NCBI RefSeq assembly: GCF_055900595.2
Contig: NZ_CM148325.1
Strand: one strand, 5' to 3'
DNA length: 64,000 bases
A model generated the notes under the pieces. It saw only the letters and a program-made list of their open reading frames with translations, searched no databases and was not told the DNA's origin. The position numbers were made by a program, and so were the translations under genes. Below, one piece after another: positions 2,521 through 56,934 of this stretch (within the stretch, counting starts at the first letter, position 1; each line of letters opens with the position of its first letter).

Positions 2521-2706
2521 AAGTTATCCTTACAATGTGTTTATCGCTTGCTAAGCATCGAGTGCGACGGAAATGCCAGAATAGCACTCTCCTGCATACA
2601 CGCACCGATAGCCACTTTTTTTCGCCCCCCAAATGTAGACCAGACGGGGGGCGAAAGGGAAGACTCCAGGTATGACAAATCAGGCGTTAAATCACGTTTT
2701 CTGGTC

Positions 2707-3297: not shown

Positions 3298-3339
3298 GTT
3301 GAGTTCTCAAATACGGAAATTATCCGCAGTTTACCTGAA

Positions 3340-5124: not shown

Positions 5125-5898
5125 TCACTCATACTCTGCCCGACACATCGCCACCGTATCTTCTATCAGACGGCGCGCCACGGTGCCGGGCGGCGGAAGT
5201 AACGGTAAATCATCGTAGCGATACCAGTTCGCCTCGAGCAGCTCTTTCGGATCAATCACGATGTCGCCGCTATCATATTCCGCCATAAATGCGGTCATCA
5301 GCGACTGGGGAAACGGCCACGGCTGGGAAGTCACGTACCGCAAGTTTTTAACTTTAATTCCGCTCTCTTCCATCACTTCCCGCGCGACCGCCTGCTCGAG
5401 GGTTTCGCCCACTTCGACGAATCCGGCAAGTACCGTATGGACACCGTTACGATGGCGGGTATGCTGGGCGAGGAGGATCGAATCATCGCGACGGATGGCA
5501 ACAATAATGCAGGGGGCGATTTGCGGGTAGTAACGCTCACGGCAATGGCTGCACAGCATCGCCCATTCGGTTTTGCTCGGATACATTTCATGCCCGCAGT
5601 AACCACAGTATTTATGCGATCGGTAAAACTCCGCCAGTTGCACGCCACGTCCGGCCAGTTGAAACAGCCCAACATCGAGATCAATGACCTGACGTACCGA
5701 CCCCATATCGTGACGCCGCTGCTGTTGTACTAACCAAACAGGTTCCCCCTGCCATTCGCCGATTTGTAGTGCGCGCTGACCCACAAGATCGAAATTTGCC
5801 GCTTCGCCATATGGCAATTCTCCCTTCGGCAACCATAATTTTTGTTCATGGCTGACGACCCACCAGCCGTGATCTAATTTTTCAATTATACGATCCAT
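5125..5898 (-). CDS. nudC: NADH pyrophosphatase (Nudix hydrolase)
   Basis: 257-aa ORF with C4 zinc motif (CGYCGHEM...CSHC) and Nudix box ([22 protein letters not shown]). Confidence 0.93.
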
Positions 5899-35344: not shown

Positions 35345-36202
35345 TCAGTCTAAAACTGCCAGTTTTTCGAGCGTTTCGAAGCCGTAGCGCTGTAAAACGG
35401 GCAATAATTGTTCAGCTTCTGGCGTCATTGCCATACAAAAGGCAATATTCGCATCGGCGGATTTTGCATCCGGGGCTTCATGTTCTAACAACCAGGCCGT
35501 TCGGCGAGCAATCGCTGCGCCAGAATCCACCAGCCGTGTTCCCTCTGGCAGCACTTGTAACAGTTCTTCTTGTAGTAGAGGGAAGTGGGTACACCCCAGA
35601 ACAACGGTATCTGGTGGCTCTTTCATTCTTAACCACGGGCGCAAGATACGCTTTAGTGCATCCAGAGAAACATCTTCGCCATGCAGCTTCGCTTCAGCCA
35701 ACTCAACCATCTCTGCCGAGCCCAGCATTTCTATCTGGCATTCATTAGCGAAACGCGCGATCAGCTCATGAGTATAAGAACGTTTAACTGTTCCGCGGGT
35801 TGCCAGTAATCCGACAATGCCATTTGCCGTCAGACGTGCAGCAGGTTTAATCGCCGGCACGACACCAACAACCGGGAAGTCGAACTTTTCGCGTAATGCA
35901 GGAAGTGAAACGGTACTGGCGGTGTTGCAAGCGACCACTGCCAGCGCAAGGGGATAGCGTTCTTGCACTGCGGTGACAATTGCCACCACTCGCTCAACAA
36001 TAAACTCTTCGCTTTTTTCGCCATAAGGGAAAGCGACGTTATCGAAAGCATAAATGTAATGGAGATCCGGCAAGAGATGCCGGATCTCGTCATAGACCGA
36101 CAACCCACCGACGCCGGAGTCAAACACCAGCACGGTGGGACGTGGTTCAGAAGGTGTAGCTGCCAGACAAGGTGTATTCCCGTCCTGCAGTTTGGTAGCC
36201 AT
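35345..36202 (-). CDS. murI: Glutamate racemase MurI
   Basis: Start at [40 protein letters not shown] (285 aa); ORF track begins 4 codons upstream. Confidence 0.92.
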
Positions 36203-37991
36203 AGACTGTCTCATAATCTTTGTCGAACAGGTTGGCTATTTTACCACGAACTGTCAGGTGAGAGGTGACCGGATACGCAACCGCAAGATCCCACAAGCTC
36301 ACACCGCCCATTTTCACGGTTTGATACGGCCAGGAGGAGTAATCCTTATCATAGCGAGTGCCTAAATACTGATAAGTAATACCCCAGTCGAAGTCATACA
36401 ACTGCCAGTCGAGCTGGTATTTCACCTGCTGTTTAGCACGGCGTAACAACGGCGTGTCGGTAATTGCATTGCGCGCATCGACATAATCATAACTCACAGT
36501 ATGCGTCAGTGGTCCGGTATCAAAATTGGCGGTCGCCTCGACGCCCTTAATTCGCGCTTTCCCTTCGTTATAGTATTTCAGGGTGTGATCATCGTAATCG
36601 ATCAAGTCACTGACATCGTTACGATATCCAGAAATACGCCAGTTCACCCCAGCGGTTAAGCCTTCAAACGCGCCTTCCCACTGTTTGCTTTTCTCAGGTT
36701 CCAGATTTGGATTTCCGTAGAAGCCATACAGTTGTCCAAGATTTGGTGCCTTATAAGATGTCCCGTAGGAAGCAATGAAGCGATAGCCTTCGATGAATTC
36801 CCAACCAGCGCTGGTTTGCCAGGTTCCATGACGACCAAACTGTGAGTTATCGTCGCTGCGTGCTGCGCCTTCAAAGGTAAAATCGCCGACTTGTTGCAGC
36901 CCGGTCAGATAGATGCCGGTATTACGTTGATCATATCCATCCTCAACGTAACCTGTACCCGGCGTCGTAGTCTGTTTCTGCCAGTCGACACCCGCACCAA
37001 TACTACCGTGACCAACGATGACATTGTTTGCCCACTGGACGGTGTATTGCTTCATCTCATCAAGCGTCGCCGACGAATCATAACGACCATAATGCGGATC
37101 GTAGTTGTAATCTTTGCTATGGCTATAGCTGGTAATGAGTTGTGATTTAATCAGTTCGCCGTTATAGCGCAGCCCGGCGTCCCAACTTTGGCTATAGAGT
37201 TTACGGGTATCGAGCAACGGTGAGCCGGGAGAATAATATGCGTCATAATTGGTATGGTTATCATAGCCATAGCCGCGCACAAAACCGCTCCAGACATCAG
37301 TAAAGTTATGCTCCAGCGCGCCATAAAGCGTTTTACTTAAAAAACCATCGTTATCTGGCTGAGCTTGCGTTCCGGTATTACCATAGGCGACAACATCATA
37401 ACCATGAGTATGGGCATAATCGCCCAACAGCGTTACCCGTGTCTTATCTCCCAGTAGTTGCTGTGTAGAAACATCATAGTTCTGATAGCTATTGCTTCCC
37501 CACCCTGCTGAAATTTCCGTTCCGGGTTGATCGCGCGTCGTGATGATATTCACGACCCCACCTATTGCATCGGAACCATAAACAGCGGAGCGCGGCCCAC
37601 GGATATATTCAACACGCTGGACAAGCGCAATAGGGAACTGGCTAAGGTCGGCAGAACCACTCACCCCCGCCAGATTCAGGCGTACGCCATCAATTAACAC
37701 CAACACATGACTGGCATTTGTACCGCGAATAAAAATAGAAGAGAGTTGACCTGAACCGCCGTTTTGGGTGATATCGACACCCGGAAGACGGCGCAGCACA
37801 TCATTGACCGAGGTCGACTGCCAGCGGTCGATATCCTGACGCGTCACAACGGTGGTTGGTGCAAGCACAGTGCTGCGCGGCTGTTCAAAACGGTTAGCCG
37901 TAACGACGAGAGTATCCGGGCTGGTATCCTGTGCCCAAGCAGAAAATGCCGTGACGGAACACGCCGTCAGCAGCGAAGCTTTTTTAATCAT
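36147..37991 (-). CDS. btuB: TonB-dependent vitamin B12 outer-membrane transporter BtuB
   Basis: Start at [35 protein letters not shown] (614 aa, TonB box DTLVVTA); 3' end overlaps murI start. Confidence 0.95.
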
Positions 37992-40839: not shown

Positions 40840-42240
40840 ATGCCACATTCCTACGATTACGATGCCATAGTAATAGGTTCCGGCCCCGGCGGCGAAGGCG
40901 CTGCAATGGGCCTGGTTAAGCAAGGTGCGCGCGTCGCAGTTATCGAGCGTTATCAAAATGTTGGCGGCGGTTGCACCCACTGGGGCACCATCCCGTCGAA
41001 AGCTCTCCGTCACGCCGTCAGCCGCATTATAGAATTCAATCAAAACCCACTTTACAGCGACCATTCCCGACTGCTCCGCTCTTCTTTTGCCGATATCCTT
41101 AACCATGCCGATAACGTGATTAATCAACAAACGCGCATGCGTCAGGGATTTTACGAACGTAATCACTGTGAAATATTGCAGGGGAACGCTCGCTTTGTTG
41201 ACGAGCATACGTTGGCGCTGGATTGCCCGGACGGCAGCGTCGAAACACTAACTGCTGAAAAATTTGTTATTGCCTGCGGTTCTCGTCCATATCATCCAAC
41301 AGATGTTGATTTCACCCATCCACGCATTTATGACAGCGACTCAATTCTTAGCATGCACCACGAACCGCGCCATGTACTTATTTACGGTGCTGGAGTGATC
41401 GGCTGTGAATATGCGTCGATCTTCCGCGGTATGGATGTAAAAGTGGATCTGATCAACACCCGCGATCGTCTGCTGGCGTTTCTCGATCAAGAGATGTCAG
41501 ATTCTCTCTCCTATCACTTCTGGAACAGTGGCGTAGTGATTCGTCACAACGAAGAGTACGAGAAGATCGAAGGCTGTGACGACGGTGTGATCATGCATCT
41601 GAAGTCGGGTAAAAAACTGAAAGCTGACTGTCTGCTCTATGCCAACGGTCGCACCGGTAATACCGATTCGCTGGCGTTACAGAACATTGGGCTGGAAACT
41701 GACAGTCGCGGACAGCTGAAGGTCAACAGCATGTATCAGACCGCGCAGCCGCACGTTTACGCGGTGGGCGACGTGATTGGTTATCCGAGCCTGGCGTCGG
41801 CAGCCTATGACCAGGGGCGTATTGCCGCACAGGCGCTGGTGAAAGGTGAAGCCACCGCACATCTGATTGAAGATATCCCTACCGGTATTTACACCATCCC
41901 GGAAATCAGCTCTGTGGGCAAAACCGAACAGCAGCTGACCGCGATGAAAGTGCCATATGAAGTGGGCCGCGCCCAGTTCAAACATCTGGCACGCGCACAA
42001 ATCGTCGGCATGAACGTGGGCACGCTGAAAATTTTGTTCCATCGGGAAACAAAAGAGATTCTGGGCATTCACTGCTTTGGCGAGCGCGCTGCCGAAATTA
42101 TTCATATCGGTCAGGCGATTATGGAACAGAAAGGTGGCGGCAACACTATTGAGTACTTCGTCAACACCACCTTTAACTACCCGACGATGGCGGAAGCCTA
42201 TCGGGTAGCCGCGTTAAACGGTTTAAACCGCCTGTTTTAA
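40840..42240 (+). CDS. sthA: Soluble pyridine nucleotide transhydrogenase SthA (UdhA)
   Basis: 466-aa [41 protein letters not shown]... with FAD/NAD Rossmann motifs. Confidence 0.95.
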
Positions 42241-43140
42241 CACTTTATCGAAATGGCCATCCATTCTTGCGCGGATGGCCTCTGCCAGCTGCTCATAGCG
42301 GCTGCGCAGCGGTGAGCCCGGACGATAAACCAGGCCAATAGTGCGGCGTGGTTCCGGCTTAATACACGGCAAATAAACAACCCCATCGCGTTTACGCTCC
42401 GGCGGCACAGCCAGCGCAGGCAGTAAAGTGATCCCGCTACCTGCCGCCACCATGTTGCGCAGAGTTTCCAGGCTGGTCGCGCGGAAGTGTGTATCTTCAT
42501 CCGCCCCGGCTTCAAAGCAGAAACCCATTGCCTGATCGCGCAAACAGTGACCATCTTCCAGCATCAGCAGTTTTTCCCCTGCCAGATCGGCCATTGGTAC
42601 GCATTCGCGGTTCGCCCACGGGTGATCTTCATAGATAGCCAGCAACATTGGCTCATCAAACAACGGCACTTCAATGAATGCTTCGCTCTCTTTCACCAGC
42701 GCGAGGATCACGCAATCGAGTTTGCCGCTGTCCAGTTGCGCCAGTAACTGGTGGGTCTGTGCTTCATGCAGATACATTTCCAGCTTTGGAAAGGTCTGGT
42801 GCAGCATCGGGATAATATGCGGTAACAGGTAAGGCCCAACCGTGGGAATCAAACCAATATGCAGCGGCCCGGACATTGTCTCGCCCTGCTGGCTTGCCAT
42901 CTCTTTAAGGACTTTCACCTCACGCAGCACGGTACGCGCCTGATCCACCAGCAGCATTCCCGCCTGGGTGAATAACACTTTACGGCTGGTCCGCTCCAGC
43001 AACATCACGCCCAGCTCATCTTCCAGCTTACGAATTTGCCCGCTAAGCGTCGGCTGGCTAACGTGGCAGGAATCTGCCGCACGCCGAAAATGACGGTGTT
43101 CAGCCAATGCCACCAGGTACTCAAGATCACGAATATTCAT
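42223..43140 (-). CDS. oxyR: LysR-family oxidative-stress regulator OxyR
   Basis: Start at [44 protein letters not shown] (305 aa); redox Cys pair (HCLRDQ, HFRATS region). Confidence 0.96.
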
Positions 43141-43235
43141 TATCCATCCTCCATCGCCACGATAGTTCATGGCGATAGGTAGAATAGCAATGAACGATTA
43201 TCCCTATCAAGCATTCTGACTGATAATTGCTCACA

Positions 43236-43347
43236 GAAACGGAGCGGCACCTCTTTTAACCCTTGAAGTCACTGCCCGTTTCGAGAGTTTCTCAACTCGA
43301 ATAACTAAAGCCAACGTGAACTTTTGCGGATCTCCAGGATCCGCTTT
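43236..43347 (+). ncRNA. oxyS: OxyS small regulatory RNA
   Basis: GAAACGGAGCGGCACCTCTTTTAACCCTTGAAGTCACTGCCCGTTTCGAGAGTTTCTCAACTCGAATAACTAAAGCCAACGTGAACTTTTGCGGATCTCCAGGATCCGCTTTTTTTT, divergent from oxyR and ending in a terminator hairpin plus U-run. Confidence 0.93.
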
Positions 43348-43391
43348 TTTTTATTCTACAGGCCCACAGCAAGAGAGCCTGATAGTAACAG

Positions 43392-44675
43392 TTACTCAAT
43401 CCGATCTTTGACAATAAAGAAGTAACACAGCGCCCCGGTGAACGTCACACAGGCCGCGATAACCAGCGCCAGATTAAACGAGTGCGTGGTATCCACTACC
43501 CAACCGGTTACGATCGGAGCAAAGGAAGCAAAAACAAAACTGCCAAAGTTTTGAATCCCGGCGATGGAAGCCACTTTTGTTTCTGACACCATCACCTGCA
43601 CCAGTCCCCATGCAGATGTTCCCGCGAAATGCACGCAGAACAGCGCCATTGAGATAAACGCTACAGCCTGGGCTGGCGAGGAGGATTGCACGACCAGCAA
43701 CGTGCCTAATGCCGACATCATCAAACCGCAGACAATAGCCGTTTTACGCGTCTTCGCCAGGTCGTAGCCTTTTTTCGCCAGCCGATCGACAACAATACCG
43801 TTAACCCACATCCCGACCGCCGCCGCGAGGAAAGGAATCGCCGCCACCCAACCGGTTTTCGCCAGACTGAAGCCTTGCTCGGCTTGTAAATAACCGGGTA
43901 ACCACGCGATGTAGAGCCAACCGGTATAATTGACGCCAGAGAAACCTAAAATCATCCCCCAGGTTGTCCGATGCTTAAACAGCGCCAGCCACTCGCTAAA
44001 TTGTAATTGTGGACGCGGTTTAACCGGCGCGGAGAGATAGGTCCGTTCTTCGTCGGTCAGGACAAACTGCGCCCGGTTGCGATACCACGCGTACCAACAG
44101 ATCCCAACCAGAATCCCCGCCACGCCGATGATGACGAACATTGCCCGCCAGCCCCATGCCAGCTGCATCAATACAAGAGCAGGAGGCGCAATAGCCTGAC
44201 CGATAACGGTAGATGAGTTAAAAATCCCCAGCGCCGTGCCGCGTTCTTTTTGCGCATACCAGTCGGTGATCGACTTTACTCCCGCAGGCATAAATGGCGC
44301 TTCGCCAATACCCAGACCGATACGCATTAAAATAAAGTGGCTAAAAGAATTAACCATTCCTGTTAATGCCTGCATTAATGACCAGAATATTAAGCCTGCA
44401 CCTAAAACTATTCGTGGGCCAAAGCGGTCTAGCAAAATACCGGAAGGGAGTTGTGAAAAACCATAAGACAGAGAAAATGCAGAAAGCAAAACGCCAAATT
44501 CTGTCGCCGATAATCCTAACTCGCCACGAATCGCTTCGCCTGCCACGCTCAATGACGAACGGTCGAGGAAATTAACGATCCCCGCCATAAATAATAAAAC
44601 CAGCGTTACTGTCTGAATACGACGAATCCGTTGCGGTTTATTACCCGCAACACTGGTTGACACATCAACGTCCAT
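43392..44675 (-). CDS. MFS transporter, anion:cation symporter (ACS) family; predicted sugar-acid (aldonate/hexuronate-type) permease
   Basis: 427-aa ORF with 12 predicted TM segments and MFS motifs (DRFGPR; DgoT/ExuT-like); accessory relative to K-12 gene order. Confidence 0.8.
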   Translation of the reverse strand: MDVDVSTSVAGNKPQRIRRIQTVTLVLLFMAGIVNFLDRSSLSVAGEAIRGELGLSATEFGVLLSAFSLSYGFSQLPSGILLDRFGPRIVLGAGLIFWSLMQALTGMVNSFSHFILMRIGLGIGEAPFMPAGVKSITDWYAQKERGTALGIFNSSTVIGQAIAPPALVLMQLAWGWRAMFVIIGVAGILVGICWYAWYRNRAQFVLTDEERTYLSAPVKPRPQLQFSEWLALFKHRTTWGMILGFSGVNYTGWLYIAWLPGYLQAEQGFSLAKTGWVAAIPFLAAAVGMWVNGIVVDRLAKKGYDLAKTRKTAIVCGLMMSALGTLLVVQSSSPAQAVAFISMALFCVHFAGTSAWGLVQVMVSETKVASIAGIQNFGSFVFASFAPIVTGWVVDTTHSFNLALVIAACVTFTGALCYFFIVKDRIE

Positions 44676-44741
44676 TTTTAGCTCCTTGAGCGGAATTAAT
44701 CGATTTGCTGACTATTCAGAAAATAATTAAGCGAACCGTTA

Positions 44742-45956
44742 TTACCAGTTCCACAATGTGCCATCTTCCAGTCGTGCGACGGGGAGATACGCCGGGTCAT
44801 ACGGATATTTCGCCGCCAGTTTCTCATCGAAAGAAATACCCAGCCCCGGTTCATCGCCTGGGTGCATATAACCTTCATCGAAGCGCCAGCTGTGCGGGAA
44901 GACTTCAAGCATTTGTTCGGAATAGCCCATGTACTCCTGAACACCAAAGTTTGGCACCCAGAGGTCAAAATGCAGCGCCGCCGCATGACAAACAGGCGAT
45001 AAATCTGAAGGGCCATGCGAACCGGTACGTACCTGATAAAGCGATGCAAAATCGGCAATCCGTCGCATCCCGGTAATGCCGCCTGCATGGGTAATCGTCG
45101 TGCGAATATAGTCAATCAGCTGCTCTTCGATTAACTGCTTGCAGTCCCAGATACTGTTAAACACTTCACCGACCGCAATCGGCGTCACAGTATGCTGGCG
45201 AATCAGACGAAAACATTCCTGGTTCTCGGCAGGCGTCGGATCTTCCATCCAGAACAGGCGGTAATCCTCTATGCTCTTCCCAAAGCGTGCCGCTTCGATA
45301 GGAGTCAGGCGATGGTGCATGTCATGCAACAGATGTTCGTTAAAACCGAACTTATTACGCACCGCTTCAAATAACTTCGGTGTAAAATCGAGATACTTTT
45401 CTGAAGACCACAACTGCTCTTCCGGCCACAGGCCTTTGGTTGCCGGTTCATACGCCAGTCCTTTGCCCTTCGCCAGGCCATAAGTGGTTTGCATACCCGG
45501 TACACCGCACTGCACACGAATCGCCTTAAAGCCCATCTGCTGGTGCTTTGCATAGTCTTCAAGGACTTCATCAATCGTGCGCCCGGTGGTGTGGCAATAA
45601 ACCATCACGCCTTCACGAGAAGCCCCACCAAGCAGTTGATACAATGGCATATTTGCCGCTTTGGCTTTGATATCCCACAACGCCATATCAATGGCAGAAA
45701 TGGCCGACATCGTGACGGGGCCACGTCGCCAGTAAGCACCTTTATAAAAGAATTGCCAGATATCTTCGATACGACTGGCATCGCGGCCAATTAATTGTGG
45801 ACAAAGATGATCTTTCAGATAAGAAGCGACCGACAATTCGCGACCATTTAATGTGGCATCTCCCAATCCACAAAGTCCGCTTGCAGTGGTTATTTTAAGC
45901 GTAACGAAATTACGTCCTGGGCAAGTAACAAAAACATCTGCAGCAATAATTTTCAT
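44742..45956 (-). CDS. Enolase-superfamily dehydratase, mannonate dehydratase (ManD)/RspA-like subgroup
   Basis: 404 aa from [24 protein letters not shown]...; AGGAG RBS 9 nt upstream; ORF track begins 20 codons earlier. Confidence 0.8.
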
Positions 45957-46346
45957 TATTGCAATCTCCTGTGTTGTAAATAGACGCTTCAAACTTAATT
46001 TTACGCCTACTACCATACAAGAGAGAAAGAGCGATTATTCAACCGTGATCACATTAAAAATAAAAATTTCCACCGAGGAACAAAAATATCCTCAAATCTC
46101 ACCTACACTATTAACTACCATCGTTAAAACAACGTGTTAAATAATCACATAACAAATTCCTTTAAGGAAGGGAGTTATAACAACAACAAAAGATAATCAT
46201 ATTTTACTTAATTCAATACGTATCGATAGGTTTATTTAAAAAGGATTTTTCGGAATGAGAGATGAAAAGAAGATACACAAGCAGGAAGAAATACGATTAA
46301 TATTAGTTGCGGTAAGGGTAGCCGTTCCTCCCTTCCGCAACCCATT

Positions 46347-46443
46347 AACCGTTGAAGTCACAGACTATTTCAGGCATTTCTCAACTCAAAATAACGACAG
46401 CCAACGTGAACTTTATGGCTCTCCAGGATCTGCTTTGTTTTCC
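46347..46443 (+). repeat. Diverged copy of the oxyS 3' portion (oxyS-like remnant), direct orientation
   Basis: ACCGTTGAAGTCAC...TTTCTCAACTC...AGCCAACGTGAACTTT...CTCCAGGATCTGCTTTGTTTT aligns with oxyS 43258-43347 at roughly 80% identity by eye; terminator stem not conserved. Confidence 0.7.
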
Positions 46444-46444
46444 A

Positions 46445-47923
46445 TCAAACAACGGAGCTCAGCGCACTGGCTACCTGTTTAAAGCGAGCAAACCGTCGCC
46501 TGAGCATGTGTGCTTTTTCTACATTCGGTTCAAGACGAATCACGTTGAGCTGCGTAGCCTTCATGGCCTGTTTGAATCCAGAATAAGCCCCTCCTCCTAC
46601 TGCCGCACACATTGCAGCCGCTCTACAACCTGACTGTTCAATATCGACAATTTCAAGAGGCATTTTGCTGGCATCACAAAACATCTGCATCCAGATTCTG
46701 GAATGCGTTGGCCCGCCAGAGAAACGAATCGTTTGCAATGACTTATCAATCTCAATAAGACGGTCCTGATGCAACAAATGAGAAAAGACAATGCCCTGAT
46801 AAATAGCGTACACCAAATCTTCTCTTTTATGATGCCCACACAGCCCCAAAAATCCCCCGCTTAATGCCTCATGGTAATTCGAGCCAAACAACCACGGGAA
46901 AAAGAGAATATCATTCTGCTTCTCATACCCTCGTTCCACCCACTCATTAATCACCCGATAACTGTCAGGAAGATCCGGTAAAAATTGCTGCAAGAACCAT
47001 GTCAAATTACTGGCTGATGTAGGGCTTCCCTCATGGGCGAAAAATGTACCTGGAATGCTAAATTTCCCCCATACATAGGGATAATCAGAAGGAATAATGC
47101 GATCAAAGATTCGCGTTGCAATTGACCAGGTGCCAGCAACCGCACTTAACGTTGTACTGTCATAGATGCCAGAAGTGAGCGCCGCACCAACGACATCAAA
47201 AACACCACCAAAAACAGGCGTTCCGGCGAGAAGCCCACATTGGCTGGCTGCTTCAGATGTCACAAACCCAGCTAAATCAGCGGAGCCAATAATATCGGGA
47301 ACCTTACCCGCAACTTCCTTAATCTCAAATAGGCGAAAAAGTTCAGCATCATAAGCACTGGTATATTGATTATAAAAATTACTGCCTGAAATATTGGTTT
47401 CTTCACAAGCCAGTTTGCCAGTAAGCCGTGAACGTATGTAATCATGAACCATCAAAATGGTTCCGATGCGGCCATAATTGTCAGTCTCATGTTTTTTCAA
47501 CCAATGCAATAGTGCTACAGGGTGCGATGGCCAGAGCTGTTGCAGACTACGGTGATAACTTTCGCGGTCAATTCCTTGTTCTTTCCAGCTTGCAACCAGT
47601 TGTTGTGCGCGAGAATCAGAGGAAACAATGCCGTGTCGTAAGGGCTTACCTTGCCGGTCGAGCAGGTACAAACCTTTACCATGAGCAGAAAAACTGATGC
47701 CATCAATCTGACTCGCAGTAATATTGTTATCTGACATCGACAGTGAAATGACCTGGCACGTTACCTTCCATAACGCCTCCATGTCGCGTTCGCAAAAACC
47801 AGGACATGGGCTTAACAGAGGTAACGCCTGCGAAGAGACACCTATTTCACGTCCTTCTGCCGTATAAATTCCCGCTTTGGTTTCTGTACCACCTAAATCG
47901 ACACCAATAAAATACCGCTCCAT
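46445..47923 (-). CDS. FGGY-family carbohydrate kinase, L-xylulose/3-keto-L-gulonate kinase (LyxK)-like
   Basis: 492-aa ORF; N-terminal FIGVDLGGTETKAGIY and C-terminal FSGGPTHSRIWMQM actin-fold motifs. Confidence 0.8.
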   Translation of the reverse strand: MERYFIGVDLGGTETKAGIYTAEGREIGVSSQALPLLSPCPGFCERDMEALWKVTCQVISLSMSDNNITASQIDGISFSAHGKGLYLLDRQGKPLRHGIVSSDSRAQQLVASWKEQGIDRESYHRSLQQLWPSHPVALLHWLKKHETDNYGRIGTILMVHDYIRSRLTGKLACEETNISGSNFYNQYTSAYDAELFRLFEIKEVAGKVPDIIGSADLAGFVTSEAASQCGLLAGTPVFGGVFDVVGAALTSGIYDSTTLSAVAGTWSIATRIFDRIIPSDYPYVWGKFSIPGTFFAHEGSPTSASNLTWFLQQFLPDLPDSYRVINEWVERGYEKQNDILFFPWLFGSNYHEALSGGFLGLCGHHKREDLVYAIYQGIVFSHLLHQDRLIEIDKSLQTIRFSGGPTHSRIWMQMFCDASKMPLEIVDIEQSGCRAAAMCAAVGGGAYSGFKQAMKATQLNVIRLEPNVEKAHMLRRRFARFKQVASALSSVV

Positions 47924-47939
47924 GATCCCTCCTTAGTTT

Positions 47940-48803
47940 CTAAATATTATCCCAGCCGGCAAAGCGCATTTTCTCTTCAATCCATTGACGTGCATGAATA
48001 ATTTCTAATAGAGGTTCCGTCGCTTTTTCTGTCCACATTTCTATCAGAAACGTTCCGCGATAATTAAGATTACGCAGGATCTTAAATAATTTAATAAAAT
48101 CTACACACCCTTCACCAAAAGGAACGTCACGAAATTGCCCTGGAGAATCAGGCGTTACTGGGTACGTATCTTTAAGATGGATTGCGGCAATTCGATCAAT
48201 CCCCTTTACCAGCTCACTTTCCAGTTCATTACCCCATGCGGTCAGATTGCCAACATCCGGATAAACGGTAAACCAAGGGGAATTAATTTTTGTATCCAGG
48301 ACTTTCCATTTACTAATAGAATTAATAAATGGCGTATCCATGATCTCTACAGCACACATAACTTGTGCCGCTGCGGCCTGTTCAGCTGTCCAGGCCATCG
48401 CATCTTCAAACCAGGCGATAGTTTCTTCATTCTGCGGCTCATAATAAACGTCATAGCCTGCCAGTTGGATTGTTCGAATCCCCAAATCCTGCGCCAGGCG
48501 TAACGCCTTCAACATAATCGTACGTGCCTGCTGACGAGTATCTCTATCATGGCTACCAAATGGAAAACGCCGGTGAGCAGACAGGCACATTGTCGGAATA
48601 CGGATCCCCGTTTGCTGAATGGCGCTAATAAGCTCCATACGCTCGGTGAGCGACCAGTCCAGGCGGGCGAGTCGTTCATCATTCTCATCTACCGACATCT
48701 CAACAAAATCAAAACCGCAAGATTTAGCCAGGGCTAGTTTCTCTACCCAACTGGTATTCCTGGGTAGCGCTTTTTCATAAATACCTAACGGGTGGCGTCG
48801 CAT
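47940..48803 (-). CDS. Sugar-phosphate 3-epimerase, UlaE/SgbU-like (L-ribulose-5-P / L-xylulose-5-P 3-epimerase family, xylose-isomerase-like TIM barrel)
   Basis: 287-aa ORF with LGIYEKALP...GFDFVEMSVDE...LAGYDVYYE...GEG.VDF motifs; start overlaps upstream permease stop. Confidence 0.8.
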   Translation of the reverse strand: MRRHPLGIYEKALPRNTSWVEKLALAKSCGFDFVEMSVDENDERLARLDWSLTERMELISAIQQTGIRIPTMCLSAHRRFPFGSHDRDTRQQARTIMLKALRLAQDLGIRTIQLAGYDVYYEPQNEETIAWFEDAMAWTAEQAAAAQVMCAVEIMDTPFINSISKWKVLDTKINSPWFTVYPDVGNLTAWGNELESELVKGIDRIAAIHLKDTYPVTPDSPGQFRDVPFGEGCVDFIKLFKILRNLNYRGTFLIEMWTEKATEPLLEIIHARQWIEEKMRFAGWDNI

Positions 48804-49849
48804 TATTTTCCCTCACGAGTGATCAATTGTTGTTGAAAGATTTTCCGGCTCTTATTCATGTCACGCTGCAACTGCCATTTTTGTTTGATGAATTTAAATG
48901 CCAGTGCGGCGATCAATGTGATCCCCCATACCGCCAGATTGAAATGCAAACTAAGTCCCAACAGACTAAGGCCGGTAGCAATAACCTGAAGCACAAGTAA
49001 GGCACAAAAAACATGACTGACTTTACCCGCCCCACCGAATGGATCTGTGCCTCCCAATACAATTGCAAGAACCGTCAAGAGCAGATAGGAATCGCCATAG
49101 CCCATACGCGCCGAATTAAATCGCGCGAGCATAATAAGACCTGCTAATACACACAACATGCTGGATATAGCATATATAGCAATTAATACGCGGTCGGTGC
49201 GAATACCGCTAAACCATGTGGCGTTAATATTACTGCCACACATATAAATCGTTTTTCCCGTACGGGTTTTGCCGAGGAACAGAGCTAAAGCAACGGTGGT
49301 GACGATAAAAATTATCATCGGTACTGGGATCCCCATGATAACTTCAGACCCAATACTGCGGACTACTGGTGGCATACCACTTAAAGCTGCCCCCTTAGTC
49401 AGGTAAATACCGATACCACTAATAATGGTCATGCTACCCAATGTGACCAAAATAGGGTGAGCGCCTATATGAGAAATAATTGACCCAGTAATAGCTCCAA
49501 TGATGATGGCAATAAGCATCGCCCCGACAATAGCCAGGAAGAGCCAAAACAACTGACTACCTGTAGATGCATCTGCGGGTACATATTGAATCAACAGCCA
49601 GGCCATAAACAGGCTGGTCAGATTCGCAGTACCGATGATTGCCAGATTGAGCCCCCCGCTCAACATGGGTATAAACATCGCAAACGTGAGCAACCCAAGC
49701 TCTGGCAATTGAAATGCAATGCTCAGAAAAGTATTGCCGGTGAAAAAACGCCCCGGCATTACCAGACTAAATAACACCACCGCAATAAAACATATTGATA
49801 ATAAGCCTGAACTGGTACCATCTAGTGGAAAAAATATCCGCTTGTTCAT
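48803..49849 (-). CDS. Sugar ABC transporter permease (CUT2 / RbsC-like)
   Basis: Polytopic membrane ORF; start taken at MNKRIFFPLDG with GGAGG RBS 6 nt upstream (ORF track starts 10 codons earlier). Confidence 0.8.
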   Translation of the reverse strand: MNKRIFFPLDGTSSGLLSICFIAVVLFSLVMPGRFFTGNTFLSIAFQLPELGLLTFAMFIPMLSGGLNLAIIGTANLTSLFMAWLLIQYVPADASTGSQLFWLFLAIVGAMLIAIIIGAITGSIISHIGAHPILVTLGSMTIISGIGIYLTKGAALSGMPPVVRSIGSEVIMGIPVPMIIFIVTTVALALFLGKTRTGKTIYMCGSNINATWFSGIRTDRVLIAIYAISSMLCVLAGLIMLARFNSARMGYGDSYLLLTVLAIVLGGTDPFGGAGKVSHVFCALLVLQVIATGLSLLGLSLHFNLAVWGITLIAALAFKFIKQKWQLQRDMNKSRKIFQQQLITREGK

Positions 49850-49862
49850 TTCGATCCTCCCG

Positions 49863-50855
49863 TTAGACGAAACCAACATCAGTTTCTTTACGTTTTTTGT
49901 AATGGGTCACACAAATCGCCGAGACAATAACCACTCCAATAACGATATTGACGAAATAACTCGAGATGCCAATCAAATTAAGGCCGTTTTTAAGAATACC
50001 GATAAGAAATACGCCCATAAGCGTACCAATGACCGTACCACGTCCGCCTGATAAACTGGCACCGCCCAATACCGCTGCAGCCAGCACATCCAACTCTCCG
50101 CCAACCAATGCATTCGGCACAACTTCACTCATACGGTAAGCTTGCAGCATTCCACCAATTGCTGCAGCGGCACCAAGATAACCATAAGCAAACAGATAAA
50201 TTAGCGACACCCGAATCCCAATACGTCTTGCTGATTCGGTATTCCCTCCCACGGCATAAAGCTGACGCCCAATATGGGTTTTGTTCATTATCATCCACGT
50301 CAGAAATGCCATTCCCAGCATAACCACTAACGGTAATCCGATCTGGTAATCTTCTCCGCCAAATTCAAAACTCAGGAAAGAACGCTGCGTAATCCACCAA
50401 TCCGGTAAATCGTAAATACTGTGGCCATTAGTCAACCACATCAACATACCGAACAGTAGCGACTGCATACTAATCGTAATGATGATGGAAACGACATTAA
50501 GGTAATAAATAAGAATAGCGTTTATCAAACCAAAAATGATGCCAAGAAAAACAGCAAACACCAGACAGAAAAATGGATTTGATAGCGTTTCATTAAGCAG
50601 TAACGACGCCACAACATATTGCACAACCGAAGCTACTGCTGCAAAAGAGATATCAATTCCGCCAGTAACCAATACGACAAATAATCCGAGGGCGAAAATA
50701 CCCGTTACGGCATAACTTTCCGAGAGATCGAGCAAGTTCTGTATTGATAAAAACTCATCGCTCATGATGGAAAAAAATACCAGCATGAGAACAATGACCC
50801 ATCCTAACCAAGCTTCGACTGAACGAGGAAACCGCAGCCGCATAAAGCTAACCAT
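49863..50855 (-). CDS. Sugar ABC transporter permease (CUT2 / RbsC-like)
   Basis: 330-aa polytopic membrane ORF; start overlaps the ATPase gene stop by 8 nt. Confidence 0.8.
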   Translation of the reverse strand: MVSFMRLRFPRSVEAWLGWVIVLMLVFFSIMSDEFLSIQNLLDLSESYAVTGIFALGLFVVLVTGGIDISFAAVASVVQYVVASLLLNETLSNPFFCLVFAVFLGIIFGLINAILIYYLNVVSIIITISMQSLLFGMLMWLTNGHSIYDLPDWWITQRSFLSFEFGGEDYQIGLPLVVMLGMAFLTWMIMNKTHIGRQLYAVGGNTESARRIGIRVSLIYLFAYGYLGAAAAIGGMLQAYRMSEVVPNALVGGELDVLAAAVLGGASLSGGRGTVIGTLMGVFLIGILKNGLNLIGISSYFVNIVIGVVIVSAICVTHYKKRKETDVGFV

Positions 50856-52365
50856 TAATCACCTCCGCCAACTGCTGCTCGGTATAATTCGAAGGCAACA
50901 GCTCATTAATAATCTTTCCGCGCTTCATATGAAAAATACGATCGCAGTTATAATAAGCTTCTGGTGCTTCATCAGTAATTAATATCACTGAAATACCCAC
51001 ACCTGAAAGCCGATGAATAAGCTGGTAAATACTATCTTTTGCGCCAATATCTACACCTACCGTTGGCGCATCCAGAATTAAAACCTTAGGTCGTGTTAAA
51101 ATCCATTTAGCCAGGACAACCTTTTGTTGATTGCCGCCAGATAGCGTTGAAAGTGGATTATTTGGATCGGTGACTTTAATATCCAAATCCTGGATCCACT
51201 CCTTGACTAAGGTTTCTTTTCGATTTTCATCAATAAACCCCGATGCCGTCTTTAAACGATCCAGAATCGAGAGCACCATATTATCGCTGATAGATTGGGG
51301 TAATACGGCCCCCAGTGTCAGGCGATCTTCTGAAACATATGCTATTCCCAGTTTTACCGCATGCGTGTTGTCTTTAATTGTAACGGGCTTACCTTCCAGA
51401 TAAATATCACCACTATCTGGTCGAGTAATACCGAAAAGACTCAATGCTAATTCAGTTCTCCCCGCACCAAGTAAACCACACAATCCCAGAACCTCGCCCT
51501 GGTGTAGTTTTAGAGAAACATCTTCAAATTGCCCTTTTCTGCATAATTTGTTTAGTTCAAGGACTACTTTGCCTTCAACGCTATTTGGTAGCTTCTTCTG
51601 GTGGACTATAGTTTTTCCGGTCATTAACTCAGTAATATCGCCCGGAGAAAGTTGATTGGCAGCCCACGTTCCAATTATCTCTCCATCACGGATGACCGTA
51701 ATCCGATCTGAAATTTCCTTAACTTCATCAAGGCGGTGGCTAACAAAAACTACGGTAATATTTTTATCGCGTAAGTAATTCACTGTGCGTAGTAATTGAT
51801 TAACTTCTGTACGCGTCAATGATGCCGTTGGCTCGTCCATGATGACTAAGCGGGCATCGGCAATCAGAGCCCGGCAAATCGCGACCTGTTGGCGTTGTGC
51901 AATCGGCAAATGTTGTACTAACGCATCAGGATCGAGATTGAATTGCAGCTCCTGAATTATTTTCTGCGATACATCTCGAAGTTGTTTTTTTCTGTGCAGC
52001 CCTAAATATCCCTTCAGGTTGTATTCAAAAGCGATATTTTCAGCAACAGAAAGATTTGGGAATAAAGAAAGATCCTGATATATCACCTGAATACCCAGTT
52101 CCCGAGCTTTATCAGGAGAAAGACGAGTCCAGGACTTACCATCTATAATAATTTCACTTCCCGAATCAGGGACATAAACACCACACAGCGTTTTGATCAG
52201 AGTACTTTTACCACACCCATTCGCACCAGCAAGACAATGAACCTCACCTTTATTTAAGGTAAGATTGATATTCTTTAGAGCCCTATGGCCACCGAAACTT
52301 TTCGTTAGTGACCTTAGCGTCACTAATGGTTGCTCCGCATTCTTCTCTATAATATGAGGCATCAT
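50848..52365 (-). CDS. Sugar ABC transporter ATP-binding protein with two fused nucleotide-binding domains (RbsA/MglA-like)
   Basis: 505-aa ORF; Walker A GANGCGKST in the N-terminal domain, ABC signature LSGGNQQKVVLAKW in the second. Confidence 0.85.
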   Translation of the reverse strand: MMPHIIEKNAEQPLVTLRSLTKSFGGHRALKNINLTLNKGEVHCLAGANGCGKSTLIKTLCGVYVPDSGSEIIIDGKSWTRLSPDKARELGIQVIYQDLSLFPNLSVAENIAFEYNLKGYLGLHRKKQLRDVSQKIIQELQFNLDPDALVQHLPIAQRQQVAICRALIADARLVIMDEPTASLTRTEVNQLLRTVNYLRDKNITVVFVSHRLDEVKEISDRITVIRDGEIIGTWAANQLSPGDITELMTGKTIVHQKKLPNSVEGKVVLELNKLCRKGQFEDVSLKLHQGEVLGLCGLLGAGRTELALSLFGITRPDSGDIYLEGKPVTIKDNTHAVKLGIAYVSEDRLTLGAVLPQSISDNMVLSILDRLKTASGFIDENRKETLVKEWIQDLDIKVTDPNNPLSTLSGGNQQKVVLAKWILTRPKVLILDAPTVGVDIGAKDSIYQLIHRLSGVGISVILITDEAPEAYYNCDRIFHMKRGKIINELLPSNYTEQQLAEVING

Positions 52366-52392
52366 AATATTCCTGAATACGACTAAAGGAAT

Positions 52393-52412
52393 TCCGGGTC
52401 AAATTTGACCCG
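52393..52412. promoter_or_regulatory. Perfect 20-bp palindrome (intercistronic stem-loop) between binding-protein and ATPase genes
   Basis: CCGGGTCAAATTTGACCCGG within the 63-nt gap. Confidence 0.5.
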
Positions 52413-52428
52413 GTGATTTACAGTAAAA

Positions 52429-53433
52429 TTACAAGCCTAGCTTCACTAAACGTCGTGTATTTTCAAGATCGAGCTTTTCTGGATTATCACTATAAATAGT
52501 GTTGTTATTAACCTTGATCTCGCCCATATCACCGATTTTTACACCGTCTTTAATAGGTTCACCGTTCATCATTGCCGTCGCAACCTGGACAAAAACCTTA
52601 CCCGCAATCATAGGGTTTGAAATATATCCCCCATCAATGGCACCTTTTTCGAGTAGCTTAATTCCCTGACCTGGAGTGAAGGTTCCAAAAACGCAAATTG
52701 CATCATTTTTCTTCCGCTTATCAATAGCACGCCCCGCACCAATTGGTCCTTGTGAACCAAATGACATAATGCCTTTAAGATCTTTATATTTAGACATTAA
52801 ATCGTTCGTCGTGCGCATTGAATCATCCACCGACTCAGCAACACCAAAACGATCTTCAACCAACGTCATATTTGGATAATGTTCTTTTTGATAGGCAATC
52901 GCGGCATTGGCCCAGTCATTTACCAAAGGCACAGTCAGACTGCCGACAAACATGGCGTATTTACCTTCTTCGCCCATACACTTCGCCATATCTTTCATAT
53001 GATTGGCACCCATTGTCTGGGTATTTAACAACTCAAAATCCCAATCTGCATTTTTTTGATCTGGTGATTCGTGGGTAATAACTTTAATACCGGCTTCTTG
53101 TGCACGCTTAAGTACAGGTTCAAGAACCTTTGCATCGTTAGGAACAACACCAATAACATCCACTTTTCGTGCAATTAAATCTTCAATCGCCCGAACCTGT
53201 TCAGCTGGATCTGCCGTTGTAGGGCCGACCTGCCATGCATCAACCCCCAATAGTTTTCCTTCATTTTTAATGCCTTGTTCCATCACATTAAACCAGGGAA
53301 TTCCACCGACTTTTACTACTACCCCCATCGTAAAAGGTTTATTCGCTTTTTGTGATGTTACAGTCTGATCAGCCCATGCAGCAGTGGAAGATAATACGGT
53401 AGCAATAAGGCAGGGTAAGATTAATTTTTTCAT
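52429..53433 (-). CDS. Periplasmic sugar-binding protein (type I PBP, RbsB-like)
   Basis: 334-aa ORF with signal peptide MKKLILPCLIATVLSSTAAWA; first gene of the ABC operon. Confidence 0.85.
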   Translation of the reverse strand: MKKLILPCLIATVLSSTAAWADQTVTSQKANKPFTMGVVVKVGGIPWFNVMEQGIKNEGKLLGVDAWQVGPTTADPAEQVRAIEDLIARKVDVIGVVPNDAKVLEPVLKRAQEAGIKVITHESPDQKNADWDFELLNTQTMGANHMKDMAKCMGEEGKYAMFVGSLTVPLVNDWANAAIAYQKEHYPNMTLVEDRFGVAESVDDSMRTTNDLMSKYKDLKGIMSFGSQGPIGAGRAIDKRKKNDAICVFGTFTPGQGIKLLEKGAIDGGYISNPMIAGKVFVQVATAMMNGEPIKDGVKIGDMGEIKVNNNTIYSDNPEKLDLENTRRLVKLGL

Positions 53434-53461
53434 CGTAATTTCCTTAAGAAATAGTTCAGGT

Positions 53462-53493
53462 GTCAGGAAAACTCGATATAATATCGACCTGAC
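53462..53493. promoter_or_regulatory. Nested inverted repeats in the binding-protein promoter region, candidate operator for the adjacent DeoR regulator
   Basis: GTCAGG-AAAAC-TCGATATAATATCGA-C-CTGAC, 36 nt upstream of the binding-protein start. Confidence 0.35.
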
Positions 53494-53555
53494 TATTTAT
53501 ATAATTTATAATCCCTTAGGCATTGATTAATAATTTAGACAATAAATAACGCCTA

Positions 53556-54365
53556 TTATTTATCAACCTCCACAATGTTTAATTGTGGAAATTGTGTTCG
53601 ATACCGAGTATCTGTACAAACATTAGTCACCAGAATATCGATTTCATCCAGCGTGCATATTTTACTAAATGCATACTGTTCAAACTTAGTGGAGTCGACC
53701 AGCAATATTTTTTGTCCTGACACCTGAAGCATCACCTGTTTAAGTCTGGCATTAATTTCACTGCCATCGCGGACACCATTCCCCAGATTCAACCCCTGGC
53801 ATGAAAAGAAAAAACTGTTGATTTGAAAATTTCGGATCGCACTCTCTGCAACCGGGCCATGAAAATCATCATGTCGCTCAGAATACTCACCACCGATACC
53901 AATAATTCGAACTCGATCACGGCAAGCTAACGCCTGAATTATCCGTAATGAATTTGTAACTACGGTAACATCTATATCGGGAATTTGACGAGCTAAAAAC
54001 CAACAAGTACTACTGTTATCCATTAAAATACAATCACCAGGGTGAATAAATTGCAATGCGGCCTTCGCAATTCTGGCTTTTATATCAGGATTTTCTTCAG
54101 TCCGTTTACGGAATGATTCCGCACGATCGATACTATTATCTTGCCACGCATTATCGGCGAGCATAACCGGAGCGCTATCAGATGAATCCAGAGCGACCGC
54201 GCCACCAAAGCTACGGATTAACTTTTTGTTGCGCTCCAGTACCGTTAAATCCCGACGAATTGTCTCAGGAGACGCTTTAAATAATCGTGATAATTCAGTT
54301 ACCCGCACAGCACCTTGTTTTTGTACATGTGCGCATATCATTTTATGGCGCTCTGCCTGCAACAT
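53556..54365 (-). CDS. DeoR-family transcriptional regulator
   Basis: 269-aa ORF with N-terminal HTH (VRVTELSRLFKASPETIRRDLTVLE) and C-terminal DeoR sugar-binding domain. Confidence 0.85.
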   Translation of the reverse strand: MLQAERHKMICAHVQKQGAVRVTELSRLFKASPETIRRDLTVLERNKKLIRSFGGAVALDSSDSAPVMLADNAWQDNSIDRAESFRKRTEENPDIKARIAKAALQFIHPGDCILMDNSSTCWFLARQIPDIDVTVVTNSLRIIQALACRDRVRIIGIGGEYSERHDDFHGPVAESAIRNFQINSFFFSCQGLNLGNGVRDGSEINARLKQVMLQVSGQKILLVDSTKFEQYAFSKICTLDEIDILVTNVCTDTRYRTQFPQLNIVEVDK

Positions 54366-54744
54366 AGTATCGGTCCGTTATTATCAAATTAGCATGCTTA
54401 TATAATTAACTGTTCCCTCATAAAATAAAGTGATAGGAATCAAGATTCATTTTATAATTATAATCGCAAACAGGAATGGTGATCTTTATCACAAATTAAA
54501 TTGAGAACACTCTACTATTTGACATTACTTTGAGATATCGGTCACTAAATAAGTCTTATTCTGCCATCTAACGAAAAATTTAAATACAAAAACAAAAATA
54601 ATCGGGCATAGCAATCGCTTCCATTCATGACCGAATACGCCCGAATAAAACCGTTTATACCCACTTATCCTCTTTCGTTGCCTTCTTACATGCCTTGAAT
54701 ATTTTACATTTCTTATATTCAGCGTAATTTAGGAAACATAATTT

Positions 54745-54816
54745 ATGAGCAAAAAAAGCCCAAACTCAAAAGTTAAAGTTTATTTATATAATACATACAG
54801 ATTATCGTGGAGTTAA
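54745..54816 (+). CDS. Candidate 23-codon upstream ORF ([23 protein letters not shown])
   Basis: AGGAAA 8 nt before the ATG; TAA stop ends 2 nt before the 4-epimerase ATG; no homology claimed. Confidence 0.25.
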
Positions 54817-54818
54817 AA

Positions 54819-55511
54819 ATGGATATGCTAAAGGAAAAAGTTCTTGCTGCGAATTTATCATTACCCCTTCATCAGTTAGTGACGTTTACCTGGGGAAATG
54901 TTAGTGGTGTTGATCGCGAAAAAGGTGTCATGGTTATTAAACCTTCTGGGGTCGAATACAGCCAAATGGGCATTGCAGATATGGTGGTAGTGGATTTACA
55001 AAGTGGTGAAGTTATTGATGGACACAGGAAACCCTCTTCAGACACCGATACTCATCTGGCGCTATACCGTGCTTTCCCGGATATTGGTGGTATCGTTCAT
55101 ACCCATTCCCGACACGCCACAATATGGGCTCAGGCCGGAAAAGATCTCACGGCCTTTGGGACAACCCACGCTGATTATTTCTACGGCACTATCCCCTGTA
55201 CACGCCCCATGAAGGATGACGAAATTAATGGACAATATGAATATGAAACGGGGCGAGTGATTATTGAAACGTTCAGACAACGAGAAATATCTCCCGCTGA
55301 CATTCCGGCTGTTTTAGTAAACAGTCATGGCCCCTTTGCCTGGGGAACTGATCCCGCGAACGCCGTGCATAACGCCGTTGTACTTGAAGAAATTGCCTAT
55401 ATGAATCTCTTTACACAACAACTACAGCCCCATCTTACGGCTATTCAACAGCCTCTACTGGATAAGCATTTTTTACGCAAGCATGGTGCCAATGCTTATT
55501 ACGGGCAGTAA
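54819..55511 (+). CDS. Class II aldolase-family L-ribulose-5-phosphate 4-epimerase (AraD/SgbE/UlaF-like)
   Basis: 230 aa from [34 protein letters not shown]...; GGAG RBS 6 nt upstream; HTHS and HADYFYG motifs; ORF track uses a GTG at 54807. Confidence 0.85.
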
Positions 55512-55560
55512 CCCTCTTAGCATGGCCTGGCGTTTTGCCAAGCCATAAATCGCCTAAGAC

Positions 55561-56934
55561 TTACTCCAACCGCGCCTGCGCAAAAGCAATCGCCTGCGCC
55601 ACCTGCTGCGGTGAGACGCCGCCTTTTGCCGCACGCTTGTCGAGGCACGATTGCAGCGACAGAATCGGATAGACATCTTCGCCAATCACCTGACTGAATT
55701 TCTGCAACTCACTGAGCGGCAGATCTTCCAGCGGTTTGCCCTGACGAATGGCTTCCACCACCGCTTCACCAACAATATGGTGCGCCTCGCGGAACGGCAC
55801 ACCTTTCGCCACCAGGTAATCCGCCAGTTCAGTGGCGTTCGCATACCCCTGCTGCGCCGCTTCCTGGCAACGTGGGCGTTTCACCTGAATGCCGTCCAGC
55901 ACCAGCGCCGCCATATGCAGGCAGTCCAGCCAGGTATCGAGCGCGTCGAACAGACCTTCTTTGTCTTCCTGCATATCTTTGTTATAAGCCAGCGGCAAAC
56001 CTTTCAGCGTCATCATCATGCCAGTCAACGCGCCCTGAACACGACCGCATTTACCGCGAATCAGCTCCAGCGCATCCGGGTTTTTCTTCTGCGGCATTAA
56101 TGATGAACCGGAAGTCACGCGATCAGAAAGCTCCACAAAACCCGCTTCGCCGGTGTTAAAGAAAATCAGATCTTCGGCAAAACGCGACAAATGCACCATA
56201 CCGATAGCGGCGGCAGAAAGCAGTTCCAGCACGTGGTCGCGGTCAGAAACGCTGTCGAGACTGTTACGGGTCGCCGAAGCAAAGCCCAGCCAGCCTGCTA
56301 ACTGTTCACGGTCGATTTCATAGGCCGTTCCCGCTAGTGCGCCACAGCCTAACGGGCTGACATCCAGACGCTTAAGCGCATCCTGCAAACGGCTTTCATC
56401 ACGCGCCAGCATCTCAACATAGGCCAGGCACCAGTGCGCGAACGTCACCGGTTGGGCGCGTTGCAGGTGAGTGTAACCTGGCATTACCGCGTCCTGATTG
56501 TTTTGTGCGGTTTCCACCAGCGCCGATTGCAGCTGTCGGTTAGCCGTCAGCAACTCGCTAACGGTATCCTTGCACCACAGTTTCAGATCGGTCGCCACCT
56601 GATCATTACGGCTACGCCCGGTGTGCAGTTTTTTGCCTAACTGGCCCACTTTGTCGATCAGTTTGCCTTCCACCCAGCTATGGATATCTTCGGCGTCGCT
56701 TTCAAGAATTTGTTGTGGCCTGGCGCGAACATCTTCCAGCAGCACATTGAGCGCCTCTTCCAGTTGCACCTGTTCTTCTGCGGTTAACACGCCTACCGTT
56801 ACCAGCGCTTTGGACCAGGCCACAGAGCCAACAATATCCTGCTCCGCCAGACGGTAATCAAAGCGCAGTGAGTCGTTGAATTGTTTAAACCGTTGATCTG
56901 CTGCCTGGGTAAAACGCCCGCCCCAAAGTGCCAT
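55561..56934 (-). CDS. argH: Argininosuccinate lyase
   Basis: 457-aa [47 protein letters not shown]... Confidence 0.96.

Follow-up and report, generated by a model that had tools for sequence, protein, structure and literature searches.

The window, by which we mean the whole stretch of 64,000 nucleotides analysed here, is part of an E. coli chromosome, in which sthA (+), oxyR, oxyS, an insert of 12 kb and argH follow one another (Table 1). OxyS is an Hfq-dependent sRNA induced by OxyR, and its genuine gene, beside oxyR, is 100% identical in ST38, MIN10, ZYS9073 and Escherichia sp. E4694. The insert comprises two cassettes of sugar-utilisation genes, referred to below as module A and module B, and between them lies a second, incomplete copy of oxyS, which we call the remnant. 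At the far end of the insert the spacer between the araD-like gene and argH retains a hairpin (GGCCTGGCG...GCCAAGCC), and the same hairpin follows oxyS at the empty site of K-12.

Table 1. Coordinates of the features between oxyR and argH in the window.
Feature	Position	Strand	Basis or remark
oxyR	42223-43140	-	Divergent from genuine oxyS; ORF and RefSeq annotation of the identical region
Genuine oxyS with terminator T-run, left repeat copy	43236-43352	+	Rfam RF00035, 139.5 bits at 43236-43345
Module A gene 1, MFS transporter, D-galactonate transporter family	43392-44675	-	NCBIfam, RefSeq
Module A gene 2, D-mannonate dehydratase ManD, RspA paralogue	44742-45956	-	NCBIfam NF043051, 731 bits; RefSeq manD
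Proximal manD upstream region	45957-46165		~97% identity between A+B and A-only genomes; A-only megablast match stops at 46165
Distal manD upstream region, old haplotype boundary	46166-46305		A-only allele homologous, only ~68% identical
Strong hairpin closing the distal end of module A	46306-46341		-19.5 kcal/mol; directly 5′ of the remnant
oxyS remnant, decayed, right repeat copy	46345-46441	+	Alignment, Rfam, folding, repeat finder
Module B gene 1, FGGY-family sugar kinase	46445-47923	-	ORF, profile match, RefSeq
Rest of module B	47940-55511		L-ribulose-5-P 3-epimerase, two ABC permeases, ABC ATPase, substrate-binding protein, DeoR regulator (-)
Module B araD-like 4-epimerase	within 47940-55511, ends at 55511	+	Profile match, RefSeq
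Spacer hairpin GGCCTGGCGTTTTGCCAAGCC adjoining argH	55524-55544		Counterpart of the post-oxyS hairpin at the empty K-12 site (alignments)
argH, right flank of the hotspot	55561-56934	-	ORF, RefSeq

The similarity between the two copies is far above chance. When 43100-43400 was compared with 45950-46480 by Smith-Waterman alignment, 46345-46441 paired with 43256-43352 at a score of 98; the top score in 500 shuffles was 30, and 232 other segments of the window, taken on both strands, reached at most 27. A global pairwise alignment of the remnant with oxyS contains 80 matches, 15 mismatches and 4 gap positions (80.8% identity), and blastn gives 80.6% over 98 nt with E = 2e-18, so that homology of primary sequence amounts to 80.6-80.8% over 97-98 nt. 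Independently, a repeat finder reported the same direct repeat in three blocks with a spacing of 3089-3090. The Rfam model of OxyS (RF00035) matches 46312-46434 with 30.1 bits (E = 3e-4), below its gathering threshold of 75 bits. Together, the alignment score, the blastn result and the Rfam E-value rule out a chance or low-complexity similarity.

The original prediction had placed a copy of the oxyS 3′ end, about 80% identical and in the same orientation, near 46347-46443, and had proposed a pairwise alignment as its check, with chance similarity as the outcome that would speak against it; the alignment confirms the copy and moves its borders to 46345-46441. The remnant lies on the same strand as oxyS and covers the last ~97 nt of the gene, from about nt 21 to the terminator T-run. 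Local alignments of the sequence upstream of 46345 with oxyS nt 1-20, with the oxyS promoter and with oxyR revealed no significant similarity, scoring at the level of shuffles. This indicates that the remnant is truncated at its 5′ end, and for the same reason the full-length alignment that Rfam draws through 46312-46344 is not trusted. At the other end, homology stops with the T-run at 46441, and the stop codon of the kinase (46445-46447, minus strand) follows 3 nt beyond; the predicted distance of 1-2 nt, counted from 46443, is right. Module A is accordingly flanked by two oxyS 3′ ends (43256-43352 and 46345-46441), as had been proposed, the left one belonging to a complete gene and the right one to a 5′-truncated copy.

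To place the remnant in the population we counted haplotypes in 5426 complete E. coli genomes. The oxyS-argH junction is empty, as in K-12, in 3553 of them (65%); module A is present in 1860, module B in 146 and the remnant in 145. Three haplotypes, namely empty (65%), A only (about 32%) and A+B (2.7%), together account for 5413 of the 5426 genomes. All the B-bearing E. coli genomes inspected were A+B, and there was no B-only genome among the 5426. A single B-bearing genome lacks the remnant; in it an IS1 deletion spans the region from the MFS gene to the kinase. The IS1-mediated deletion in RIVM_C036569 (4258-7013 of the locus) has removed the 5′ end of the MFS gene, manD, the oxyS remnant and the 3′ end of the kinase gene. 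A scan of metagenomes with a remnant-specific 33-mer returned only five contigs, all E. coli-like, A+B and collinear with the window. In A-only genomes manD is followed by about 500 bp and then by argH; no decayed remnant was detected in them, where Rfam gave only a weak REP-like match (naRNA4) and alignments with oxyS and with the remnant stayed at chance level. The remnant is a clean marker of the A+B haplotype, to which the clinically important ST38 lineage belongs.

Outside E. coli, module B is found beside an intact oxyS. A comparison of the kinase protein with GTDB species-representative genomes yielded 21 loci at 60-70% identity, with a maximum of 70%, and among 5.8 billion proteins there were no relatives of the kinase between 70% and 99% identity. 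Five of the 21 loci have the order argH, module B, kinase, intact oxyS, oxyR, without module A. These are Citrobacter sp. MGH106, two C. amalonaticus, Citrobacter sp. Cu233 and Atlantibacter sp. RC6, in which the kinase is only 67-70% identical in protein sequence to that of E. coli. Genomes in which the kinase/ABC module abuts oxyS directly, without module A, had been suggested as something to search for, and these five supply them. Since module B adjoins an intact oxyS without module A in these genera, the remnant marks an old oxyS/module B junction; in E. coli it occupies precisely the place at which this oxyS would be expected. No Escherichia genome was found in which B alone is present with an intact oxyS adjoining the kinase, so the precursor that we propose is drawn from other genera only. 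The oxyS-kinase junctions are moreover not identical: in Citrobacter and Atlantibacter a second hairpin and ~60 nt lie between oxyS and the kinase, whereas the E. coli T-run reaches right up to the stop codon, so that one more deletion has to be postulated.

The second hairpin in these genera is one of a pair. In Citrobacter and Atlantibacter a copy of the spacer hairpin, AAAAAAGCCTGGC...GCCAGGC, lies at each end of module B, the first in the oxyS-kinase interval and the second in the araD-argH interval (at about 11480-11535 and about 2335-2400 in the coordinates of one locus; the same arrangement is seen in the four others). The E. coli A+B genomes have a copy of the spacer hairpin only beside argH. 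The bracketing pair has the appearance of a further duplication of a junction at this hotspot. Cargo of a third type was seen in a C. braakii/freundii genome, where a gene for an 814-aa GH18 chitinase-like protein lies between oxyS and argH (1074-3518 of the locus). The oxyS-argH spacer has thus taken up cargo repeatedly: A or A+B in E. coli, B in the C. amalonaticus group and Atlantibacter, and the GH18 chitinase in C. braakii/freundii. A literature search on oxyS, argH and the island returned nothing relevant.

The structural features of OxyS have been lost from the remnant. Genuine oxyS folds at -32.9 kcal/mol (z = -2.8), and its terminator contributes a stem of -12.4 kcal/mol. The fold of the remnant is no better than that of shuffled sequences, with z = +1.4 for the window allele and +0.2 for the ST38 allele, and its terminator reaches -1.0 kcal/mol (ATGGCTCTCCAGGATCTGC in the remnant versus GCGGATCTCCAGGATCCGC in the genuine copy), in agreement with the predicted loss of the terminator stem. 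Folding and a terminator search did not find in the remnant the three stem-loops with a strong Rho-independent terminator. There is no promoter-like (sigma-70-like) or terminator-like site in 45900-46560. The OxyR-dependent promoter arrangement next to oxyR is absent, the upstream neighbour being manD, and the oxyR-oxyS intergenic region bears no significant likeness to the sequence upstream of the remnant. Fourteen differences fall on the 78 columns that are invariant in the oxyS genes of E. coli and three Citrobacter, 10 of them common to both remnant alleles, and 11 fall on the 53 columns at which the nine functional sequences all agree. Multiple alignment with MAFFT puts the terminator and the AACTC region of the remnant out of register and thereby inflates mismatch counts; the identities quoted are pairwise.

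Compared with OxyS RNA (RF00035), the remnant is ~81% homologous from about nt 21 onwards in the same orientation and keeps the blocks AGCCAACGTGAACTTT and TCTCCAGGATC, but the first ~20 nt, the OxyR-controlled promoter and an adjacent oxyR are missing from it; stem-loop a and the terminator are destroyed, and it evolves at a neutral-like rate whereas the real gene is invariant. It resembles enterobacterial sRNA pseudogenes and decayed paralogues in being a recognisable but unstructured and promoterless copy that drifts neutrally, and it differs from them in being tied to a specific junction event of two accessory cassettes and to three coexisting haplotypes. Judged by its sequence features, the remnant gives no sign of function. 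We consider it probable (about 75%) that 46345-46441 is a non-functional, 5′-truncated pseudo-copy of an Escherichia-type oxyS, which would stem from the old oxyS/module B junction and would since have drifted neutrally.

That the segment instead acts as a second OxyS-like sRNA or, on the minus strand, as an anti-OxyS sequence in the 3′ UTR of the kinase operon seems very unlikely. A perfect block of 16 nt, AGCCAACGTGAACTTT, which belongs to the OxyS linker, and three blocks of 10-11 nt have survived in it, but with 19% mismatch over 97 nt the longest perfect run is estimated at ~14 nt, which makes a run of 16 nt unremarkable. Antisense read-through of the remnant is probable, as no terminator-like site occurs from the kinase stop codon to the hairpin at 46341-46306, and the predicted pairing gain with OxyS is -54 kcal/mol versus -7 ± 2.5 kcal/mol for shuffles; this energy, however, is a trivial consequence of the homology. 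The absence of a promoter and of structure, the neutral-like divergence between the remnant alleles and the loss of the segment in one lineage through the IS1 deletion all speak against a function. We give still less credit to the idea that the 3′ UTR of the kinase mRNA, which would carry ~100 nt antisense to OxyS, was co-opted as an sRNA sponge or target. If it were true, this UTR could titrate OxyS or be its target in the ~3% of E. coli with A+B, and a sugar-catabolic island would be linked in this way with the response to peroxide stress.

To trace the origin of the remnant, functional oxyS sequences were gathered by way of their OxyR genes from Escherichia sp. E4694 (identical to that of E. 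coli), Salmonella, Enterobacter, C. braakii/freundii and Klebsiella, and the Citrobacter loci were added. In pairwise comparisons Escherichia oxyS was the closest to the remnant (80.8-81.6% identity), followed by Citrobacter sp. MGH106, the best of the Citrobacter sequences (76-77.5%), Salmonella (73-74.5%), the other Citrobacter (69-74.5%), and Enterobacter and Klebsiella (about 65%). Over 97 nt the lead of Escherichia (~81%) over the best Citrobacter (~77%) is a modest one. Among the 23 columns at which E. coli and Citrobacter differ, the remnant agrees with E. coli at 18-19, and it carries features confined to Escherichia, namely TTTCTCAACTC without the TC(A) insertion and the terminator core/loop motif TCTCCAGGATC. 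On the evidence of its sequence, then, the remnant is a descendant of an Escherichia-type oxyS that subsequently decayed. Its divergence lies mostly at positions that are invariant in all functional copies, which points to decay after loss of function and not to divergence of a donor.

These comparisons bear on the suggestion that the tail was carried in by a donor species, for which oxyS of Salmonella, Citrobacter, Klebsiella and Enterobacter had been named as the sequences to compare. Module B would then have been imported from another genus together with the 3′ end of the donor's oxyS, and the 20% divergence would be that of the donor. Module B natively adjoins oxyS in Citrobacter and Atlantibacter, and functional oxyS differs by ~19-25% between genera, which is close to the distance between the remnant and E. 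coli oxyS. Nevertheless, the remnant is nearer to Escherichia oxyS than to any of the seven non-Escherichia sequences (65-77.5% for the four genera), it shares the Escherichia-only motifs and the E. coli state at most of the discriminating columns, and its 11-14 changes at universally invariant columns, together with its destroyed structure, are not expected of a functional donor oxyS. The gap between 70% and 99% in kinase identity in the database of 5.8 billion proteins also counts against an import. We therefore regard a foreign tail as improbable, and the donor genera named in the original prediction did not hold up; an Escherichia-like donor outside the sampled set would be a possible source.

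The left border of the remnant coincides with the end of module A. The hairpin that closes this module (z = -5.6; none of 200 shuffles was as good) is unique in the window, and hairpins occur at the aligned place in the ST38 allele (-18.4 kcal/mol) and the A-only allele (-15.7 kcal/mol), which assigns the hairpin to module A. In the locus coordinates of these two alleles it is found at about 5462-5497 and about 11107-11142. Its arms read GTTGCGG/CCGCAAC in A+B genomes versus GTTCTGG/CCAGAAT in A-only genomes, two double changes that look compensatory. A possible role of the hairpin is to stop, or to shield against, transcription that enters from the kinase operon or argH. The joint between module A and the truncated oxyS is sharp: it lies at 46342-46344, between this terminal hairpin and oxyS nt ~21.

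Within module A the manD gene, the MFS gene and the proximal upstream region as far as 46165 are ~97% identical between A+B and A-only genomes. Beyond this point 46179-46313 aligns with the A-only allele at a score of 39, versus a shuffle maximum of 18, with ~68% identity (about 0.2 per lineage). We infer from this that A-only and A+B are old haplotypes, whose shared left part would have been homogenised by recombination within E. coli. The closest relatives of module A outside E. coli, an MFS protein of ~87% identity and an rspA-like dehydratase, were found at the ynfA-rspA-ydfI locus of Raoultella, Kluyvera, Cedecea and Atlantibacter. These relatives at the ynfA-rspA locus are ordinary chromosomal genes, and the E. 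coli module looks like a relocated copy of the operon at this locus. No source of the non-coding end of module A emerged from these four genera, whose relatives align in the coding regions only.

Islands integrate at tRNA and tmRNA genes and at some sRNA genes, and the ryeA/ryeB sRNA insertion hotspot in Salmonella is an example of integrase-borne islands with partial 3′ repeats. The arrangement around module A has the topology of such islands, with an intact RNA gene at the proximal end and a truncated direct 3′ repeat at the distal end, beside the original neighbour. One could thus imagine that module A integrated site-specifically into the 3′ end of oxyS, regenerating the gene and leaving the displaced 3′ end behind. 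The repeat is indeed the 3′ part of oxyS in direct orientation, but it is 97 nt long and 81% identical (19% diverged), not a short near-identical core, and short near-identical repeats in all island-bearing genomes were not found: the commoner A-only haplotype, ~1700 genomes, has no distal repeat. Furthermore, 43353-46341 contains no integrase, excisionase or other mobility gene, only the ORFs of the MFS transporter and ManD, and the relatives of module A elsewhere are the ordinary chromosomal genes described above. An att-type origin of the repeat is therefore highly doubtful. The same three observations (no integrase, 97 nt at 81% identity, A-only genomes without a repeat) exclude a recent target-site duplication, in line with the original prediction. 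General or illegitimate recombination, and not site-specific recombination, is implied behind the repeat.

The three E. coli haplotypes and the native adjacency of oxyS and module B elsewhere bear out the proposal of a composite island built in steps at the oxyS/argH junction. The ancestral state would have been an Escherichia-type oxyS 3′ end lying directly against module B, as in the C. amalonaticus group and Atlantibacter. Later, oxyR and module B would have become separated by module A together with an intact oxyS, and the old oxyS would have lost its promoter and first ~20 nt. Such a structure would need one homologous exchange and one illegitimate joint, the latter at 46342-46344, just after the module A hairpin. 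It could have arisen by homology-facilitated illegitimate recombination (HFIR) of a linear fragment, or by a single crossover of the Campbell type, in which a circularised fragment recombines within the ~97 nt of oxyS homology; both routes would predict the observed structure, and the sequence does not tell them apart. Afterwards the promoterless right copy would have drifted neutrally, with the left copy staying under selection. Entry of A into a B-bearing chromosome and of B into an A-bearing one would give the same product. The mechanism of recombination, the order in which A and B arrived and the age of the event are conjectured from the present structure. A gradient of foreign DNA or a crossover gradient was not detected in argH and oxyR of the A+B genomes, which are ordinary E. 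coli alleles.

HFIR has been demonstrated in E. coli (PMC3240628). With it and with the orphan immunity-gene arrays of the Vibrio cholerae T6SS (PMC5361080) the present locus shares cargo added beside a conserved anchor, as well as a prior occupant displaced outward that leaves truncated relics at the junction. It differs from both in that the relic derives from a gene for a non-coding RNA and not for a protein, and in that the mechanism is read from structure only. The cassettes have been stacked beside a conserved sRNA gene without the machinery of mobile elements, and the remnant is a scar left by the stepwise assembly of the island, ordinary though well resolved, and a dated fossil of the filling of an accessory-gene hotspot. 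It also calls for caution in annotation, as sub-threshold sRNA matches beside islands can be junction relics and not paralogous regulators.

The rate at which the remnant changes can be estimated from its alleles. The window and ST38 alleles differ at 8 of 97 positions, whereas the two genomes have one and the same genuine oxyS sequence. For this pair of genomes dS amounts to 0.08-0.16 in sthA, oxyR, argH and both genes of module A, and to 0.016-0.065 in the genes of module B. As the divergence of the alleles is similar to the neighbouring dS, the remnant appears to drift at a roughly neutral rate. Its distance from the invariant functional copy is ~0.18 substitutions per site, versus ~0.04 per remnant allele since their split, which would make the duplication roughly four times older than the split of the alleles. 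The remnant may thus be used as an internal neutral clock, by which the composite looks several-fold older than the split of the two E. coli alleles. The divergence of the distal manD upstream region (~0.2 per lineage) would correspond to a depth similar to that of the remnant.

Two further observations concern the surroundings of the island. Between the window and ST38, dS is lower in module B (46445-55511) than in module A and the core flanks, and E. coli lineages may have traded module B at a later time than the sequence on either side of it. Genome EC42405 is near-identical to the window over the island, yet it differs by ~45% over ~1.7 kb of btuB (36194-37907), a gene that encodes a phage and colicin receptor. 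The ST38 btuB is only a few percent different from that of the window, and the allele in EC42405 has apparently been replaced or is highly divergent.
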